A stretch of DNA of 64,000 bases from Ostreococcus lucimarinus (Eukaryota). The position numbers were made by a program, and so were the translations under genes. Positions 1,122 to 9,397 of the stretch are shown here, one piece after another. The stretch is taken from assembly GCA_000092065.1 (NCBI GenBank), contig CP000593.1. One strand, 5' to 3'. A model generated the notes under the pieces. It worked only from the letters and a program-made list of their open reading frames with translations, searched no databases and was not told where the DNA came from. Numbering within the stretch: the stretch's first letter is position 1; every line of letters starts with the position of its first letter.

Positions 1122-3338
1122 ATGGGTCGGGGTCGATTTAACAAGCGTCGAGGAGGCGGTGGTCGCGGGAACGGTCCTCAAAGCGGCGCCTTCGCGCGCG
1201 ACTTCAAGCGACAAAAACGCGACGGCGGCGGCGGCATGGATGCGCGAGGTGAACGAGGGAACGCGCACGACGGCTATCACGACATCCAGAAGACGAACAA
1301 AGCGTTTGAGACGTACTACAAAGCCCAGAATATCGTCCCGGAGAGCGAGTGGGAGACGTTTTTGGACTGCATGCGGTCGCCGTTGCCGATGACGTTTAGA
1401 ATCAATGGAAGTGGAAAGTTCGCGACGGATATGCGAGACCAATTGGAGGGGACACTGTTCGCGGAATTGCTCAAAGAGGAATTGAAAGATGAGGAACAAA
1501 ATGAATTACCGCCGCCGAAGCCGTTGGCGTGGTATCCCGAGCGATTGGCGTGGCAGTGTAGTTATACGCGAGCGCAGTTGCGACGGTTGCCGGCGCTGCA
1601 AGGAATTTTCGACTTCATCAAGAACGCTAACGAGCTCGGGTCGATCTCTAGGCAAGAGGCAGTATCGATGATTCCTCCGTTTTTCTTGGATGCGCAACCG
1701 CATCATCGAATTTTGGACATGTGCGCGTCGCCGGGAAGCAAGACGTTTCAGATTTTGGAACGCATGCACGGTGATTTTGACGGCAACACCAAGCTTCCCA
1801 CCGGAATCGTCGTCGCCAATGACGTCGATTTGAAGCGTTGCAACTTACTGACGCATCAAACGAAGCGAGCGAACTCACCGACGTTACTCGTGACCAATCA
1901 TGAAGCGCAAAACTATCCCATCATCAAAGGCCCAAAGGGTGAACTCTTCGACTTTGACGCCATCCTGTGCGACGTACCGTGCTCGGGCGACGCGACGATG
2001 CGCAAGGCACCGGATATCTGGAACAGATGGACTCCTGGTAATGGTAACGGTTTGCATACCTTACAGCTTAGAATCGCTGCTCGCGGTGCTCAGCTCCTCA
2101 AGGTGGGCGGTCGTCTCGTGTACAGCACGTGCTCGCTGAATCCGATTGAAAACGAAGCTGTCGTGGCGGCGTTGTTGAAGGAATGCGATGGTGCTTTGGA
2201 GCTTCTCGATGTGAGTGACGAATTGCCAGACTTGAAGCGTAGCCCTGGATTGCGCGATTGGCAAGTGTGGGATAAGTTTGGCTATCACCCAAGCTTTCGA
2301 GGCGAGGAGCAAATGTTCAAGCTCTGCGAGACGATGTTCTCCGACGAAGAGACGAAGAAACTGCCGTTGGAGCGATGTCTGCGACTTTTGCCTCATCATC
2401 AAGACACTGGTGGATTCTTTGTCGCCGTATTCCAGAAAGTTAAGCCCATGGAGATCAAAGAAGACGTGAACGCAAAGAAGCAAACTGTGAAGGAGCGTGT
2501 TCGCCTTTCGCTCAACGTGAACGCGAAGAACGAGATCGAGATGTCACATGAGGTGATCACGTTGGCCCGCAAGGGTCAGACTGCGTCTATACCTCCGGAA
2601 GTCGACGACAAAGGCGAGTATTTGCTCCCACACAGAGGCGCGACGGGTCCGAACGGGGGCAGTCGATGGCTCGGCATCGATCCTGTGCTTCCGGTGAACG
2701 ATCCGAAGGTGATCAATAGCATCTACAGTGTCTACGGTATCGAAAGCGATGACATTGCGTTACACAAAAATTGTGTCACACGCACTGCGGACACTTCACG
2801 ACCGAAGCGTGTGTACACCATCACCGACTCCTTGCGCCAGTACTTAGCGTGCGACGTCAACGAAAGTCTTCGCGTGACGTCGTGCGGGCTCAAGGCGTTC
2901 GAGCGCCAGGAAATCAAGGATGAAGTCAAAGAACAAGAAGAAACTTCTGGTGCGATGTGTGATTTCCGTCTCACGCAAGACGGAATACCGATGATGTTCC
3001 CGTTCGTGAGAAAGCGCATCATTCGCCCGACTTTTGACGACTTTAAAGCCATCCTTGAACGTCGCACGTTGGCGTTTGAGTACAGCGCAGAGGCGCCGCA
3101 ACGCGCCGTCATCTCTTGCGCCGAAACCAAAAAAGCCTTGCTCGATCTCACTTTGGGATGCTGCATTCTCGTTCCTCGCGATGAAGATCTGGCCGCCATC
3201 AACGTCAGCAAGGCGGACCTCGCCATCGCGTGCTGGCGCGGTCGCACGTCATGCAACTTGTTGGTCTCCAAAGCCGAAACAATTCACTTCATCGATAAAA
3301 TCAAAGTCAACGCGGCGGTGAAGATGGACACGTCGTGA
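1122..3338 (+). CDS. NSUN2: NOL1/NOP2/Sun-family RNA (cytosine-5)-methyltransferase, NSUN2/Trm4-like
   Basis: 738-aa intronless ORF with an ATG start. Contains the SAM-binding motif DMCASPGSKT, the catalytic region DAILCDVPCSGDATMRK and LVYSTCSLNPIENEAVV (TC catalytic Cys), plus an N-terminal RGG-rich tail. Confidence 0.85.
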   Translation: MGRGRFNKRRGGGGRGNGPQSGAFARDFKRQKRDGGGGMDARGERGNAHDGYHDIQKTNKAFETYYKAQNIVPESEWETFLDCMRSPLPMTFRINGSGKFATDMRDQLEGTLFAELLKEELKDEEQNELPPPKPLAWYPERLAWQCSYTRAQLRRLPALQGIFDFIKNANELGSISRQEAVSMIPPFFLDAQPHHRILDMCASPGSKTFQILERMHGDFDGNTKLPTGIVVANDVDLKRCNLLTHQTKRANSPTLLVTNHEAQNYPIIKGPKGELFDFDAILCDVPCSGDATMRKAPDIWNRWTPGNGNGLHTLQLRIAARGAQLLKVGGRLVYSTCSLNPIENEAVVAALLKECDGALELLDVSDELPDLKRSPGLRDWQVWDKFGYHPSFRGEEQMFKLCETMFSDEETKKLPLERCLRLLPHHQDTGGFFVAVFQKVKPMEIKEDVNAKKQTVKERVRLSLNVNAKNEIEMSHEVITLARKGQTASIPPEVDDKGEYLLPHRGATGPNGGSRWLGIDPVLPVNDPKVINSIYSVYGIESDDIALHKNCVTRTADTSRPKRVYTITDSLRQYLACDVNESLRVTSCGLKAFERQEIKDEVKEQEETSGAMCDFRLTQDGIPMMFPFVRKRIIRPTFDDFKAILERRTLAFEYSAEAPQRAVISCAETKKALLDLTLGCCILVPRDEDLAAINVSKADLAIACWRGRTSCNLLVSKAETIHFIDKIKVNAAVKMDTS

Positions 3339-3592
3339 TCACAGCGCAGTCACGCCTAGTAGCGCCTCCGATGTGTGGGTGTCGTAATAAGTAGCTCTGT
3401 ATACTCGACGTGTGAATAGCGCCGCCCCGCACACGCGCGCGCGCACCGTCATCGCGGACGATGTCTCGCGTCCACGCGTGGCCGAAGCACACAGTGTCGT
3501 CATGCGCGTCTCCACGCGCGCGCGCGTCGACGAGCGCGCGCGCGCGGGCGTCGACGAGCGCGAAGGCGTCGACGAGCTCAAAGGACGACGAA

Positions 3593-4411
3593 ATGACTCC
3601 CGAGCGCGCGTTTCGCAGGATGTGGACCAAGGCGGACAAGTATCACACGCACGCGGTGTCGGGAACGTTATATACCGCGCTAGGGGCGGGAATGATGGGC
3701 CAGTGGGCGCTGGACGACGCGACGGCGCTGACGAGCGGTGGCGGCGCGACTCCGGGGCTGGACCCCGCGTTGACCGGCGTCGCGCTCACGCTGGCGACGG
3801 TGTGCGCGTTGAGTGGACTACCACTTTCAAAGAGCCGCGGTTGGCGGAAAACCGAGCTCAGCGCGCGATCGATCGCGTTTCAGTTCGTGTTGACGTGGGA
3901 GTGCGTTCGCTTCGCGGGCGTCGTCGATCCCGCGCTCAGAGTCCCCGGATTGGACACCCTTTGGTTGGCGTGGTTGCCATTCGTGTGGCAAACGATGACG
4001 TCGGCATACATCGTCCTGTTCACGAAGGACGACAAGCGCGCCGCGCTCGCGGTGTGGCTCGGCACGCTCGGTTTCGGAGCTCAAATTTTCCCGGCGCAGC
4101 GCGTCCTCGACGTCGCCTCCGTCGCCGCGCTCGAAGCCGCGAGACCCGGTCTCCCCACGATATGGGCTCACGGCACGTTTGGTTTGATTTGGCTCCTGAA
4201 CTGGTCCACGTTCGGCGCCTCACTTCGCGCGCGCGACGTCGTCTCGTCGGACGCCGACTACGTCCGCGCCTTTTTGACGCGTCCCAGCGCGTTTTGGTTC
4301 GCCTTATTCGCCCTCGACCTCGCCGTCGCGCGTCCGTTCGCGTCGATCGGCGATTATCTCGCCTCCGCCCTCGGCTCCGACGTCGCCGCCGCCCTCGCCT
4401 CGAGCGCGTGA
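3593..4411 (+). CDS. Hypothetical multi-pass membrane protein
   Basis: ORF 3461-4411. The first ATG that gives a balanced amino-acid composition is at 3593 (MTPERAFRRMW...). Several hydrophobic segments follow (GVALTLATVCALSGL, WLGTLGFGAQIF, FGLIWLLNW). TGTAA lies at about 4540 downstream. No family recognised. Confidence 0.4.
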   Translation: MTPERAFRRMWTKADKYHTHAVSGTLYTALGAGMMGQWALDDATALTSGGGATPGLDPALTGVALTLATVCALSGLPLSKSRGWRKTELSARSIAFQFVLTWECVRFAGVVDPALRVPGLDTLWLAWLPFVWQTMTSAYIVLFTKDDKRAALAVWLGTLGFGAQIFPAQRVLDVASVAALEAARPGLPTIWAHGTFGLIWLLNWSTFGASLRARDVVSSDADYVRAFLTRPSAFWFALFALDLAVARPFASIGDYLASALGSDVAAALASSA

Positions 4412-4479
4412 GTCCGCCTTCCCGTCCCGGCCCGGCGTCGCCGAGCGACCGACCGCCCACCGCGCCGCCGTCGGCTCGA

Positions 4480-4487
4480 AGATATTT
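4480..4487 (-). promoter_or_regulatory. Evening Element (AAATATCT) on the minus strand, about 350 bp upstream of the TOC1-like PRR start
   Basis: The plus strand reads gaAGATATTTtcaacg, and AGATATTT is the reverse complement of AAATATCT. It lies in the 425-bp spacer between the upstream gene's stop (4411) and the PRR ATG (4836). Confidence 0.45.
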
Positions 4488-4539
4488 TCAACGGGACGCA
4501 TCATTGCGGGAGATCCCTTTTGCATACCCTTCAACACGC

Positions 4540-4544
4540 GTGTA
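4540..4544 (+). promoter_or_regulatory. TGTAA putative poly(A) signal for the 3593-4411 gene; adjacent ACACGCGTGT palindrome
   Basis: The sequence caacACGCGTgTAAtacgtacattta contains a TGTAA pentamer and an MluI/MCB-like ACGCGT core in an inverted repeat. Confidence 0.35.
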
Positions 4545-4835
4545 ATACGTACATTTATCACACGTCTGCGAATATCCCGCGTTTCGCTTTTTCGCGGCGA
4601 AAAAGCGTCGTCGAAAAGATTCGCTCGAGCCCCCCCGCGCCGGGTCGCGACTCGTCGATCGCGCGTCGCGCGCGCCCCGCATTCTCAGGCACACGACGCG
4701 CGCGACGATCGACGCGGCGGCGCGATCGACGCGCGGCGCGGCGCGGCGCGGCGCGGCGCGAAAACCAGCGTCCGTCGCGTCGTCCGGACCGCGCTCGACG
4801 ACGCGACGGAGGCGCGGCGACGGGCGCGAGCGACG

Positions 4836-6590
4836 ATGCGGGACGACGACGCGATGGGCGCGACGCGACTCGCGGACGCGCTCGCGGACGCGGTCGAGGA
4901 CGCGAGCGCGAGAAACGCGGGCGGGGGGGGGGGACGCGCGGGACGCGCGCGCGCGAAGACGAATGGGAAGAGCGCGCGACCGAGGTTGAACGACGCGGGC
5001 GCGCACTTGAGAGTGCTGCTGGCGACGGACGACGCGCACACGCGAAAGATGGTGGAATCGATGCTGCGCGAGCTCGGGGTGGAGGTGGTGGCGGCGACGA
5101 ATGGGAACGAAGTCTTGGACGTCTTGCGGGGGGCGCCGAAGAGCGCGAGGGAGGACACGTCGGTGGATATGATTTTGCTCGACGTGTTGATGCCCGAACT
5201 CGACGGGGAAGTCGAACTGGTGGAGGCGTGTAAGGCGAACGAAACCCTGCGCGGGGTGCCGATCGTCATCATGTCCACCGTGGACGAGCGCAAGGCGTGC
5301 AAGACGCGATTTGAAAATTCGGGCGCCGCCGGTTTCTTGACGAAACCGGTGAACCGCATCGAGTTGAAGGAGAGCTTGGCGCACACGCGGGCGTTAAAAA
5401 GCCACGAAAGTGGTAGCGTTGAAGGTGAGGGTTCGGGTTCGGGGAACTGCATGGATCCAAACGACAACGTCGGCGGGAGCGCAAAGTCGTCGCTCACCAA
5501 GCTCACGAGCAGGGAAAAAGTCGCGGGGGGCTCGGGCGGTGGGCAAAACGATTCGGGGAGCGATAATCAATACAACGAAAAACCGCTCACGAGACGCGCC
5601 GAAGCCGAAGCGATCGATCGATGGGCCAGTCGCGAGGGTGGGTCGGGAGACTGCGGCTCGGGCGGCTCGGGTCAAGGCACGGGAAGCGGTAGCGGCTCCC
5701 ACGAAGGCTCGGGGTCGGGCCAGCGTGATCCAAACGACGGCGAAAAGTTCCGCGGCTTGAGCGTGCAACTCATCAAGGCGCACGGTGGGGCAACGACTAT
5801 GCTCGAACTCTCTTTACCAGAGCACGCGTCTGAGCACGTCGTCGTTCGACGATCAAACTCGCGTTCGGCGTTCAAGGGGTTTCAAAACTACCTTAAGAAC
5901 GAAAACAAGGATACCGCGGTGCAAATGATGAGCGTTGACTTGACGCAGCAGCATCACTCGTTTTATGAAGCGTCTTCCATGATGCCACCGTCAGATTTCG
6001 CCAAATTTTACGGACCGATTATGCCGAAGATGGAAATGCCCGTGCCGCCGCCGATGCCGCCGTACGCCGATATGAACCAATTCTCCGCCGCCGCCGCCGC
6101 CGCCGCCGCGGTGGCGGCGTCTTCGGTCGACGCTTCAGTGATGGATCAATCGTATATGGCGAATCCGTTTTTCAACGTTTTACAAACTGCGGCCGATCAC
6201 ACCCAGCAGACGAGCTCGAGCCAAGCCGCCGAGCATCGCGCCGCGGCGATTCGACGCTTTTTGAAGAAGCGCAAGGAAAGGAACTTCGAAAAGAAAGTTC
6301 TTTACCCTTCGCGACAAAAGCTCTCGGAATCCCGTCCTCGCGTTCGCGGACAGTTCACTCGAAACAACGATGAAACGACGACGACGACGACGACGACTGA
6401 AAACGTCTCAAACGGATCGGACAACAAACCAAAGTCGAACGAAACCAACGCGAGCGAGGCGAACAAGGTCGGCGAAGTCGAAGGCAAGGGAGTGGACGAG
6501 TACGGTCACGGCTCGAACGAAGGTTCGAACGAAGGTTCGAAAGAAGGCTCCCGAAGTTCTTCCGGCGCCGAAGGCGAAGGCTCCAAGTAA
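4836..6590 (+). CDS. TOC1: Pseudo-response regulator: N-terminal receiver-like domain plus C-terminal CCT motif; TOC1-like circadian clock component
   Basis: 584-aa ORF with an ATG at 4836. The receiver-like region is LRVLLATDD...MILLDVLMPELDG...TKPV. The C-terminal CCT motif RAAAIRRFLKKRKERNFEKKVLYPSRQKLSESRPRVRGQFTR is typical of PRR/CO/TOC1 proteins. Gly/Ser-rich repeats and poly-Ala and poly-Thr tracts lie between the two. Confidence 0.85.
   Translation: MRDDDAMGATRLADALADAVEDASARNAGGGGGRAGRARAKTNGKSARPRLNDAGAHLRVLLATDDAHTRKMVESMLRELGVEVVAATNGNEVLDVLRGAPKSAREDTSVDMILLDVLMPELDGEVELVEACKANETLRGVPIVIMSTVDERKACKTRFENSGAAGFLTKPVNRIELKESLAHTRALKSHESGSVEGEGSGSGNCMDPNDNVGGSAKSSLTKLTSREKVAGGSGGGQNDSGSDNQYNEKPLTRRAEAEAIDRWASREGGSGDCGSGGSGQGTGSGSGSHEGSGSGQRDPNDGEKFRGLSVQLIKAHGGATTMLELSLPEHASEHVVVRRSNSRSAFKGFQNYLKNENKDTAVQMMSVDLTQQHHSFYEASSMMPPSDFAKFYGPIMPKMEMPVPPPMPPYADMNQFSAAAAAAAAVAASSVDASVMDQSYMANPFFNVLQTAADHTQQTSSSQAAEHRAAAIRRFLKKRKERNFEKKVLYPSRQKLSESRPRVRGQFTRNNDETTTTTTTTENVSNGSDNKPKSNETNASEANKVGEVEGKGVDEYGHGSNEGSNEGSKEGSRSSSGAEGEGSK
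6085..6108 (+). repeat. (CCG)8 trinucleotide repeat encoding poly-Ala inside the PRR gene
   Basis: The stretch ccgccgccgccgccgccgccgccg translates to AAAAAAAA. Confidence 0.8.
6375..6398 (+). repeat. (ACG)7-8 trinucleotide repeat encoding poly-Thr inside the PRR gene
   Basis: The stretch acgacgacgacgacgacgacgact translates to TTTTTTTT. Confidence 0.8.
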
Positions 6591-6737
6591 AGGACACAAT
6601 TTTCTCAATACGTCTCAAGATAACAGATTAATTGTACCACACACCACACACCACCTTCCACTGGACAATTTCACATTGGCGAGATTCTACTTTTTAATAA
6701 TATGTACGAGTACACAAGCTATACACTATTTCCTACG

Positions 6738-7814
6738 CTACGCTACGAATTTCAAATACTTGTCGTCGGGGTACAAGACGATGGTGAACACGGCGCCCAT
6801 CTTTGGCGCGCATGAGTCGCGCTCAATTTTCTTTCTCGGCTCACCTGTGAGTTCGCTCGGCATGTGTGCGAAAGCCCAAACAGTGACGACGGCCCACGGT
6901 GCGAGCCCATCGTTCACGATCCTTCGCGCGATATCAATCACGCGTCGAGTATCTGGATACAACATCAAACCTCGCCAGCGACGCGTCTCGACGATGTCGC
7001 CTCGGTCGTCCTCGGCGCCCTCCATGTAGGCGTCTCCTAGACTTATGCGCCCACAAAATTCTAAAATCCGATCTAAATCATCAACATCGATGTCCTTTTC
7101 CTCGCCTCTCATCGGTGGACTCGCAGACGCGAGTAACACGGCACTTTGACTCACCAAATTGACGCGAACTTGCGACGAAGTCTTGACGCTCTCTGCGCGC
7201 CTCGCCGCCGTCACTGTGCGTGGAAACTTGACCTCCTCGTGCGCACCACTCACCATGTACGCGCACAATACCTTTGACTTTCCCGTTCGCTGCTCAAACG
7301 CCCGCGCACACGCCCCGATTCGATCGTGAAACCAATTCCCCACCTTGAACTCTTCTCGCGTCAAATTCACGCTCGCGAGCGCCTTCCCGCGCGCGTCCTC
7401 CGTCGTTTGCATCCCCAAACTTTCCTTTGCGTCCGCCATGAGCGACGCAACGAATCGTCCCTTCGGCGTCACGCAAAAACAATCGTCCGAATCTACCTCG
7501 GCGTCGATCGTCGTCAGCCCAAACGTCGCGCCCGCGTCGCGCGTCTTCGTCTTCGCCGCCGTCCACCGTCGCACGTGTTCGTGCACGAAGTGCGGGTCCA
7601 GCGCGTCCGCGATCGACATCTCCGCCTCGAAATGTGTCCCGACGATCGCATTCGCGTCGTCGTCGAGCGCGCGCGCGATCGCGTCCTCGTCGTCGCGCCG
7701 TCCTCGCGGCACCGCCACCTCGACCGATTTCGCGAGCGCGAACGTCGTCGCGAGGGCGTCGTCGACGTCGCACTTCGCGTGCGCGAACGACCGCCACTGC
7801 GCGCGCCTCGCCAT
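6738..7814 (-). CDS. Conserved hypothetical protein (about 359 aa); family not recognised
   Basis: Minus-strand ORF 6738-8150. The N-terminal 112 codons are Arg-rich low-complexity, so the start is placed at the internal ATG at 7814 (MARRAQWRSF...). The C-terminal two-thirds has balanced composition (…DLDRILEFCGRISLGDAYMEG…LYPDDKYLKFVA). The overlapping plus-strand ORFs (7326-8063, 7345-8124) are Arg/Ser-rich and judged spurious. Confidence 0.5.
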   Translation of the reverse strand: MARRAQWRSFAHAKCDVDDALATTFALAKSVEVAVPRGRRDDEDAIARALDDDANAIVGTHFEAEMSIADALDPHFVHEHVRRWTAAKTKTRDAGATFGLTTIDAEVDSDDCFCVTPKGRFVASLMADAKESLGMQTTEDARGKALASVNLTREEFKVGNWFHDRIGACARAFEQRTGKSKVLCAYMVSGAHEEVKFPRTVTAARRAESVKTSSQVRVNLVSQSAVLLASASPPMRGEEKDIDVDDLDRILEFCGRISLGDAYMEGAEDDRGDIVETRRWRGLMLYPDTRRVIDIARRIVNDGLAPWAVVTVWAFAHMPSELTGEPRKKIERDSCAPKMGAVFTIVLYPDDKYLKFVA

Positions 7815-8191
7815 CGGTGCTCGCGCCTCGCGTCCGCGTCCGCGTCGGCGTCGGCGTGTGTCGTCGCGTCGCGTCACTTCAAGCCGACGGCACAATCGAT
7901 CGAATCGTTCAATCATGACGACGCGCGAGCCGTTCGGCGAGGGCGTGCCTTTCGGCGACGTGCGTGCGATGCGACGCGACGCGACGCGATCGGGCGCGCG
8001 GACGACGCGGACGCGCGCGACGAGACTGCCGCGAATCGATGGAATTCCGAGGACGGTTACTAACCCGACGGAACGAATGAATCGACGCGACGCGACGCGC
8101 GGACGACGCGACGCGGAGGACTGACGACGGTACGAATCGATGGTCATCACAGCCGTCGTGGTACACGACGTTTAATTCGCCGTATTACACG

Positions 8192-9397
8192 ATGTCGCAC
8201 GCGAAGTTTCGAGACAAGGTGCGAGCGTTCGTGGAGCGGGACATCGCGCCGTACGTGCACGAGTGGGACGAGACGAAAACCATACCTCCAGAAGTGTACA
8301 GAGCGACGTACGCGGCTGGGATATTACCCGCGGTGGTTGGAAAACCGTGGCCGAAGGATTTGGTCCCCGAGTGCGAGGAACCGGAGCATTTTGATTACTT
8401 TCATGAGTTGATCGTCTTTGACGAATTCGCGCGGTGCGGGAGCGGCGGCGTACTTTGGGGACTACTGGAGGGCATACACATCGGTTTGCCACCAGTTTTG
8501 AACTTTGGGAGCGAAGATTTGCGACGAAGGGTAGGAGCTCCGTGCTTGCGAGGGGAAGGGATCATATGTCTGGCGATCACGGAGCCGTACGCCGGCAGCG
8601 ACGTGGCGAACATTCGGTGCGAGGCAAAGTTGGATCCGAGCGGGAAGTTTTATCGAGTGACGGGGGAGAAGAAATGGATCACGAATGGGATTTGGGCAGA
8701 TTATTTCACCGTCGCGGTGCGCACGGGTGGGCCGGGCATGGGTGGGATTTCGCTCCTAGTCATCGAGCGTTCGATGCCTGGCGTGGATTGTCGCCGCATG
8801 GACTGCATGGGCGTTTGGGCGAGCGGCACCACGTTCATCACCTTTGAAGACGTGAAAGTGCCAGTCGAGAATTTGATCGGCAAAGAAAACGAAGGCTTCA
8901 AGTATATCATGCACAACTTCAATCACGAACGTTGGGGGTTTGTGATTCAGGCGAATAGGTTTGCACGCGTGTGCTATGAGGAATCGTTCAAGTACGCGCA
9001 CCGTCGAAGAACGTTTGGTAAGAAACTCATCGAGCACCCAGTGATTCGACACAAACTCGCTGAGATGATTCGACAAGTCGAGGCGACGCATTACTTGCTA
9101 GAGACCATCACCTATCAAATGAATACCATGACGAAGGAAGAATCTTCGAAAGCGCTTGCGGGTATCACCGCGTTGGCCAAAGTGCAGAGCACCAAAGTGT
9201 TTGAATTTTGCGCCAGAGAAGCGGCTCAGGTGTTTGGTGGGGCCTCTTACGTCCGGGGAGGTCAAGGTGAAAAGATCGAGCGGCTCTACCGCGATGTTCG
9301 CGCTTATGCGATCCCGGGCGGGAGCGAGGAGATTATGCTCGATTTAGGTGTTAGACAGGCGATGAAGCAGTGGCAAGTTGCGCAATCGCGTCTCTAG
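8192..9397 (+). CDS. Acyl-CoA dehydrogenase family protein
   Basis: 401 aa with an ATG at 8192. ACAD fold signatures are present (EPYAGSDVANIRCEA, KKWITNG, and the C-terminal QVFGGASYVRGGQGEKIERLYRDVRAYAIPGGSEEIM). TGTAA lies about 10 nt after the stop. Confidence 0.85.
   Translation: MSHAKFRDKVRAFVERDIAPYVHEWDETKTIPPEVYRATYAAGILPAVVGKPWPKDLVPECEEPEHFDYFHELIVFDEFARCGSGGVLWGLLEGIHIGLPPVLNFGSEDLRRRVGAPCLRGEGIICLAITEPYAGSDVANIRCEAKLDPSGKFYRVTGEKKWITNGIWADYFTVAVRTGGPGMGGISLLVIERSMPGVDCRRMDCMGVWASGTTFITFEDVKVPVENLIGKENEGFKYIMHNFNHERWGFVIQANRFARVCYEESFKYAHRRRTFGKKLIEHPVIRHKLAEMIRQVEATHYLLETITYQMNTMTKEESSKALAGITALAKVQSTKVFEFCAREAAQVFGGASYVRGGQGEKIERLYRDVRAYAIPGGSEEIMLDLGVRQAMKQWQVAQSRL

Follow-up and report, generated by a model that had tools for sequence, protein, structure and literature searches.

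The Ostreococcus lucimarinus gene that, judged from its sequence, is the orthologue of the clock gene TOC1 is preceded by one perfect evening element (EE), the nine-base motif AAAATATCT. With a probability of about 85%, we take this motif to be the EE of the TOC1 promoter and the docking site through which CCA1 confines TOC1 to dusk. It lies in a 64,000-nucleotide stretch of contig CP000593.1 (assembly GCA_000092065.1), referred to here as the window. The CCA1-TOC1 loop of Ostreococcus is a model of a minimal plant-type circadian oscillator, and the EE links its two genes. The original prediction had noticed a perfect EE 8-mer at 4480-4487 on the minus strand, some 350 bp upstream of a gene with receiver and CCT domains and thus in its short promoter. 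A search of the window confirmed both points: AAATATCT occurs there once, at exactly this place, and the match extends to the full 9-mer at 4480-4488(-), where the plus strand reads AGATATTTTC. Across the site as a whole the plus strand reads cgAAGATATTTTCaac, which gives GAAAATATCTTC as the extended context in motif orientation. The element sits in a spacer of 424 bp, 349-356 bp from the in-frame ATG at 4836; from ATG 4854, where RefSeq places the start, it is 366-374 bp away, so that it lies 349-374 bp before the TOC1 start codon whichever start is used.

Rarity of the motif had been part of the initial case for function, with sequence of roughly 65% GC and an expectation of well under one copy of the 8-mer per 64 kb. 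Neither figure held. The GC content of the window is about 60%, dinucleotide-preserving shuffles contained 0.52 copies of AAATATCT on average (at least one copy in 42 of 100 shuffles), and a first-order Markov model expects 0.44 copies per window. Because about 0.5 copies are expected per 64 kb, a lone copy somewhere in the window is unremarkable, and whole-window rarity was rejected as evidence for the element. These numbers speak for an AT-rich 8-mer without function that has fallen into an intergenic spacer by chance, as does the fact that the motif was chosen with knowledge of the adjoining gene. On the other hand, only about 0.002 copies of the 8-mer and 0.0006 copies of the 9-mer are expected in the spacer itself (4412-4835). 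Since the motif was picked with the neighbouring gene in mind, conservation is the real test of the element.

Orthologous TOC1 loci of about 7 kb each were compared from O. tauri (L001/L002), O. mediterraneus (L006), three other Ostreococcus lineages (L003, L004/5 and L007/8), the RCC809-like clade B (L009/10) and three Micromonas-like lineages (L011-L015). The label Micromonas-like rests on synteny, a GC content of 0.58-0.69 and protein similarity; called gene starts in these loci are unreliable, as prokaryote-type gene calling truncates the N-terminus, and EE distances given for them are therefore approximate. We found AAAATATCT just upstream of TOC1 in O. tauri (at -267/-268 on the plus strand), in O. 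mediterraneus, in the three other Ostreococcus lineages and in the three Micromonas-like lineages. The comparison of Ostreococcus and Micromonas promoters that the original prediction had proposed thus returned the 9-mer in nine of ten diverged Mamiellales TOC1 upstream regions, among which it is the sole 8- or 9-base word so widely shared that is not a CG-repeat. Outside the TOC1 upstream regions, about 63 kb of locus sequence held a single EE 8-mer. Consistent with this, an unbiased count of 7- to 10-mers in the ten upstream regions placed AAAATATCT second among the 9-mers, and only a CG-repeat, which tops the ranking because of base composition, ranked higher.

The position and orientation of the EE vary among lineages (it lies on the plus strand in P0002, P0005 and the Micromonas-like lineages), and the sequence surrounding it cannot be aligned. 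The extended context is alike when read in motif orientation, with GAAAATATCTTC in the window, GGAAAATATCTTC in L004 and GAAAAATATCTTC in L013. Multiplying the chance probabilities of the single lineages would give about 1e-28, a product that we did not use as a P-value given that the lineages share ancestry. The meaningful evidence is that the EE is retained amid unalignable flanks and in changed positions and orientations.

Scanning metagenomes with the TOC1 alignment added 66 loci, most of which also carry the element. Wherever O. lucimarinus-type contigs reach far enough upstream, they have the EE, at -371 to -375 on the minus strand; it is identical in L017, L018, L019 and L022. A relative at 95% identity (L021) likewise has the element on the minus strand; in the spacer alignment the core AAGATATTTT is kept and the bases on both sides differ. 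Retention of the EE despite changed flanks in this relative, together with an identical 9-mer in nine of ten diverged upstream regions that hardly occurs in the flanking sequence (about 63 kb), argues against a stray match. Pure chance is excluded because the EE is conserved, and we hold a functionless 8-mer at this place to be exceedingly improbable. The placement of the motif, which had been read as functional rather than accidental from the outset, is supported by its improbability in the spacer and by its conservation across lineages.

The EE could instead belong to the upstream neighbour, a gene of 316 amino acids, as a signal in its 3' untranslated region, a termination signal or a downstream regulatory site. 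The element lies 69 bp past the stop codon of that gene and about 350 bp before the TOC1 ATG, and the gene adjoins TOC1 in every Ostreococcus lineage, with tblastn matches in all Ostreococcus loci. However, tblastn found no match to it in the Micromonas-like loci L011, L013 and L015, which carry the 9-mer between the NSUN2 gene and TOC1 all the same. Because loci without the 316-residue gene keep the EE, the element goes with TOC1 and not with its neighbour. Further substantiating this, lineages differ widely in how far the EE lies from the upstream stop codon and also in which way it faces, and the published work on O. tauri assigns the function of the EE to the TOC1 promoter. We therefore regard an assignment to the upstream gene as improbable.

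The identity of the downstream gene is well anchored. The in-frame ATG at 4836 opens a reading frame of 584 amino acids with an N-terminal receiver domain (Response_reg PF00072, residues 60-181, E 2e-15) and a C-terminal CCT domain (PF06203, residues 468-510, E 5e-15), and the CCT block is intact in the alignment of TOC1 proteins. From its seventh codon (M7, ATG 4854) the frame is identical over 578 of 578 residues to XP_001420962.1 and XP_001422932.1 of O. lucimarinus CCE9901. That one TOC1 protein appears under two RefSeq accessions, on two records, agrees with published work according to which TOC1 was recently duplicated in O. lucimarinus. Compared with the O. tauri APRR-like/TOC1 cluster Q5IFN7, identity is 76% over the aligned length and 71% in the best local alignment. 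Gene order points the same way: an NSUN2-like methyltransferase, the 316-residue gene, TOC1, RNase P p40 on the minus strand and an acyl-CoA dehydrogenase follow one another as they do in O. tauri (CAID01000013.2). Together, identity and gene order identify the gene, at the level of sequence comparison, as the orthologue of the functionally studied O. tauri TOC1, and the description of it as a TOC1-like pseudo-response regulator (PRR) has stood.

What the element is likely to do is best understood from O. tauri. According to three papers that report Corellou 2009 (PMC2978692, PMC3130137 and PMC12704426), CCA1 binds the conserved EE of the O. tauri TOC1 promoter, which bears out the statement in the original prediction that CCA1 acts on TOC1 through an EE in Ostreococcus. 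Two of the three further state that the EE is needed for circadian regulation of O. tauri TOC1, and PMC12704426 terms it critical for TOC1 regulation. One paper reporting Corellou 2009 also relates that overexpression of CCA1 lowers TOC1 and overexpression of TOC1 raises CCA1 in O. tauri. Published accounts give Ostreococcus one CCA1/LHY-type gene and one PRR gene, and clock gene homologues have been found in O. lucimarinus. By analogy, the single CCA1/LHY-type MYB protein (SHAQKYF-type) would bind the EE at 4480-4488(-) from late night into morning and repress TOC1 transcription, which would confine the TOC1 peak to dusk; TOC1 would in turn promote CCA1 expression and so close a two-gene clock loop.

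Several observations weigh against this proposal. CCA1 binding and the need for the EE are results from O. tauri, and the function of the element in O. lucimarinus itself would follow from them by orthology; moreover, the Corellou 2009 results are taken second-hand, through later papers. The element may fall inside the 3' untranslated region of the upstream gene. In O. tauri the element faces the other way, and one group of uncultured relatives, P0007, keeps a TOC1 with an intact CCT domain without any EE. The reversed orientation is no problem, since the extended context is the same in motif orientation and lineages with both orientations exist. Orientation, along with the existence of two lineages that do without the EE, would also suit a genuine site for a CCA1-type MYB protein that acts differently in O. 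lucimarinus, for example as an activating (RVE-like) site, in a light response or as a decaying relic. Against this, the 9-mer is invariant in every sampled O. lucimarinus-type contig and in the 95% relative, which argues for purifying selection; its invariance among the former also speaks against decay. A single CCA1/LHY-family gene is reported in Ostreococcus, and in the account of the O. tauri experiments cited above CCA1 overexpression lowers TOC1. A different mode of action is thus unlikely, although less so than an assignment to the upstream gene, and docking of CCA1 for the repression of TOC1 remains our preferred reading of the element.

The O. lucimarinus TOC1 EE has already been published, and its detection here is a correct re-discovery. 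Table 1 of PMC12704426 (ISME J 2025) lists 'O. lucimarinus AAAATATCT -375(-)', which agrees with the window in species, motif and strand and differs in position by one base (-374 when counted from 4854). This gap could come from the way positions are counted or from a 1-bp indel such as occurs among O. lucimarinus-type contigs. The same table gives -268(+) for O. tauri, -784(+) for O. mediterraneus, -470(-) for M. pusilla and -289(+) for B. prasinos TOC1a, and records the motif as absent from RCC809. Our results for O. tauri, O. mediterraneus and clade B independently reproduce the published entries, except that O. mediterraneus has two EE copies here compared with the single (+) copy listed in PMC12704426. 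Set beside the O. tauri TOC1 EE, the element in the window is the identical 9-mer and likewise precedes the orthologous gene, within the corresponding syntenic spacer and at a comparable distance (-268 there, about -374 here); it differs in lying on the opposite strand, in a surrounding promoter that cannot be aligned, and in that CCA1 binding and the requirement for rhythm are O. tauri results. What would go beyond the published table are palindromic double EEs and the P0007 group as a second EE-less lineage besides RCC809/clade B. While confirmation of the O. lucimarinus site adds nothing new, the wider survey of lineages does.

In Arabidopsis, the EE in the promoter of TOC1/PRR1 is bound by CCA1/LHY. 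Harmer 2000 is cited for the Arabidopsis element in one of the papers that report Corellou 2009. The Ostreococcus element resembles it in core sequence, in the class of its target gene and in the proposed repression of an evening PRR gene by a morning MYB protein. The two systems differ in that Ostreococcus has one MYB and one PRR gene where Arabidopsis has families, and in that Ostreococcus intergenic regions measure a few hundred bp. Another difference from Arabidopsis is that Ostreococcus TOC1 keeps the phospho-acceptor aspartate.

The lineages without an EE are of two kinds. Clade B (RCC809-like; L009, L010, L038, L039, L043 and L044) shares the synteny of the locus and has the orthologous gene, but it has no EE, and its CCT domain is frameshifted or truncated (RKRK-RPEARRIST...), with no CCT hit in Pfam. 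Loss of the element coincides here with the frameshifted CCT and matches the published loss of circadian TOC1 control in RCC809 (PMC12704426). Many contigs from ocean metagenomes repeat the published RCC809 result. The second kind, the P0007 group, is an uncultured Ostreococcus-like lineage represented by nine contigs from estuarine metagenomes (L024-L031 and L035), with a TOC1 that is 62% identical to that of the window. No EE 8-mer was found in P0007 loci of up to 4.5 kb, and the 1500 bp before the gene contain no sequence that differs from the 9-mer by at most one mismatch. A search for degenerate elements in the EE-less lineages likewise returned nothing within one mismatch of the 9-mer. 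P0007 has one 8-mer with a single mismatch, and this only near match, AAGTATCT at L028:938(-), is part of GATACTTGT, which occurs twice (L028:840 and 939) in an AT-rich patch (within L028:708-1326). Because the P0007 group does without it, the EE is not indispensable for keeping the TOC1 gene.

In O. mediterraneus and the related, uncultured P0012 lineage, two EEs are arranged as perfect inverted repeats (AGATATTTTGAGATCTCAAAATATCT and GGGAGATATTTTCAAAATATCTCCC), and the inverted pair is present in all O. mediterraneus-type metagenome contigs (see table). Such a palindromic pair could explain why the element has opposite orientations in different species. Palindromic pairs and the P0007 loss together suggest that the EE turns over, as leads rather than conclusions. 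A fuller version of this idea, which we put forward tentatively and consider rather doubtful, is that the element is not fixed and that, of an ancestral palindromic pair which O. mediterraneus and its uncultured relative still have, O. lucimarinus kept the minus copy and O. tauri the plus copy. The loss in P0007 would then be a second rewiring of the CCA1-TOC1 link, independent of RCC809 and perhaps by way of GATACTTGT / AAGTATCT.

Table. Positions of the evening element, of the features around it in the window, and of inverted EE pairs in related loci.
Feature	Position	Strand	Basis or lineage
Evening element AAAATATCT, context GAAAATATCTTC	4480..4488	-	Sole match in the window; cross-lineage conservation
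TOC1 coding sequence (receiver + CCT)	4854..6590	+	RefSeq start; Pfam domains; protein identity; synteny
Spacer of 424 bp: 3' end of the upstream gene, TOC1 promoter and 5' leader	4412..4835	+	Map of open reading frames
Upstream neighbour, 316 amino acids, no Pfam family	3461..4411	+	Map of open reading frames; Pfam
Inverted EE pairs	L006:2198-2224; L007:2713-2732; also L034, L036, L037, L040-L042, L045		O. mediterraneus-type / P0012-type

Other features of the spacer, which has a GC content of 0.69, also recur in the 95% relative L021. Conserved blocks comprise GAGATCCC and ACATTTATC, a palindrome at 4585-4607 and a CG-rich block at about 4688-4760. The first two belong to the interval 4509-4560, where GAGATCCC and CCTTCAAC..ACATTTATC are kept. 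GAGATCTC is found in the O. tauri spacer as well (L002, ~2634-2641), and the EE palindrome of O. mediterraneus has it in the middle. The palindrome at 4585-4607, between the EE and the TOC1 start, is a perfect 11-bp one (CGCTTTTTCGC-G-GCGAAAAAGCG) that is conserved in L021 apart from 4 nt inserted in its middle; a dimeric factor could bind there, or the leader could form a hairpin. Within the CG-rich block, itself well conserved in the 95% relative, lies a (GGCGC)n microsatellite of about five units (4733-4760), in what is presumably the TOC1 5' leader.

At a larger scale, Ostreococcus and the Micromonas-like loci L011, L013 and L015 share the order of the NSUN2-like methyltransferase, TOC1 and RNase P p40 on the opposite strand (1122-9397 in the window). 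About 35-40 long open reading frames fill the window with very short spacers between them. None of the six frames of the 64 kb encodes a SHAQKYF-type MYB protein (CCA1), and TOC1 and CCA1 are therefore not linked within this distance. No tRNA genes were found in the window, and a scan for bacterial-type promoters and terminators, which is not applicable to a eukaryote, found nothing.

Across the lineages surveyed, the EE emerges as the one word with deep conservation in a TOC1 promoter that otherwise evolves fast. Its losses mark lineages in which the clock may be wired differently, namely clade B and perhaps also another, uncultured one.

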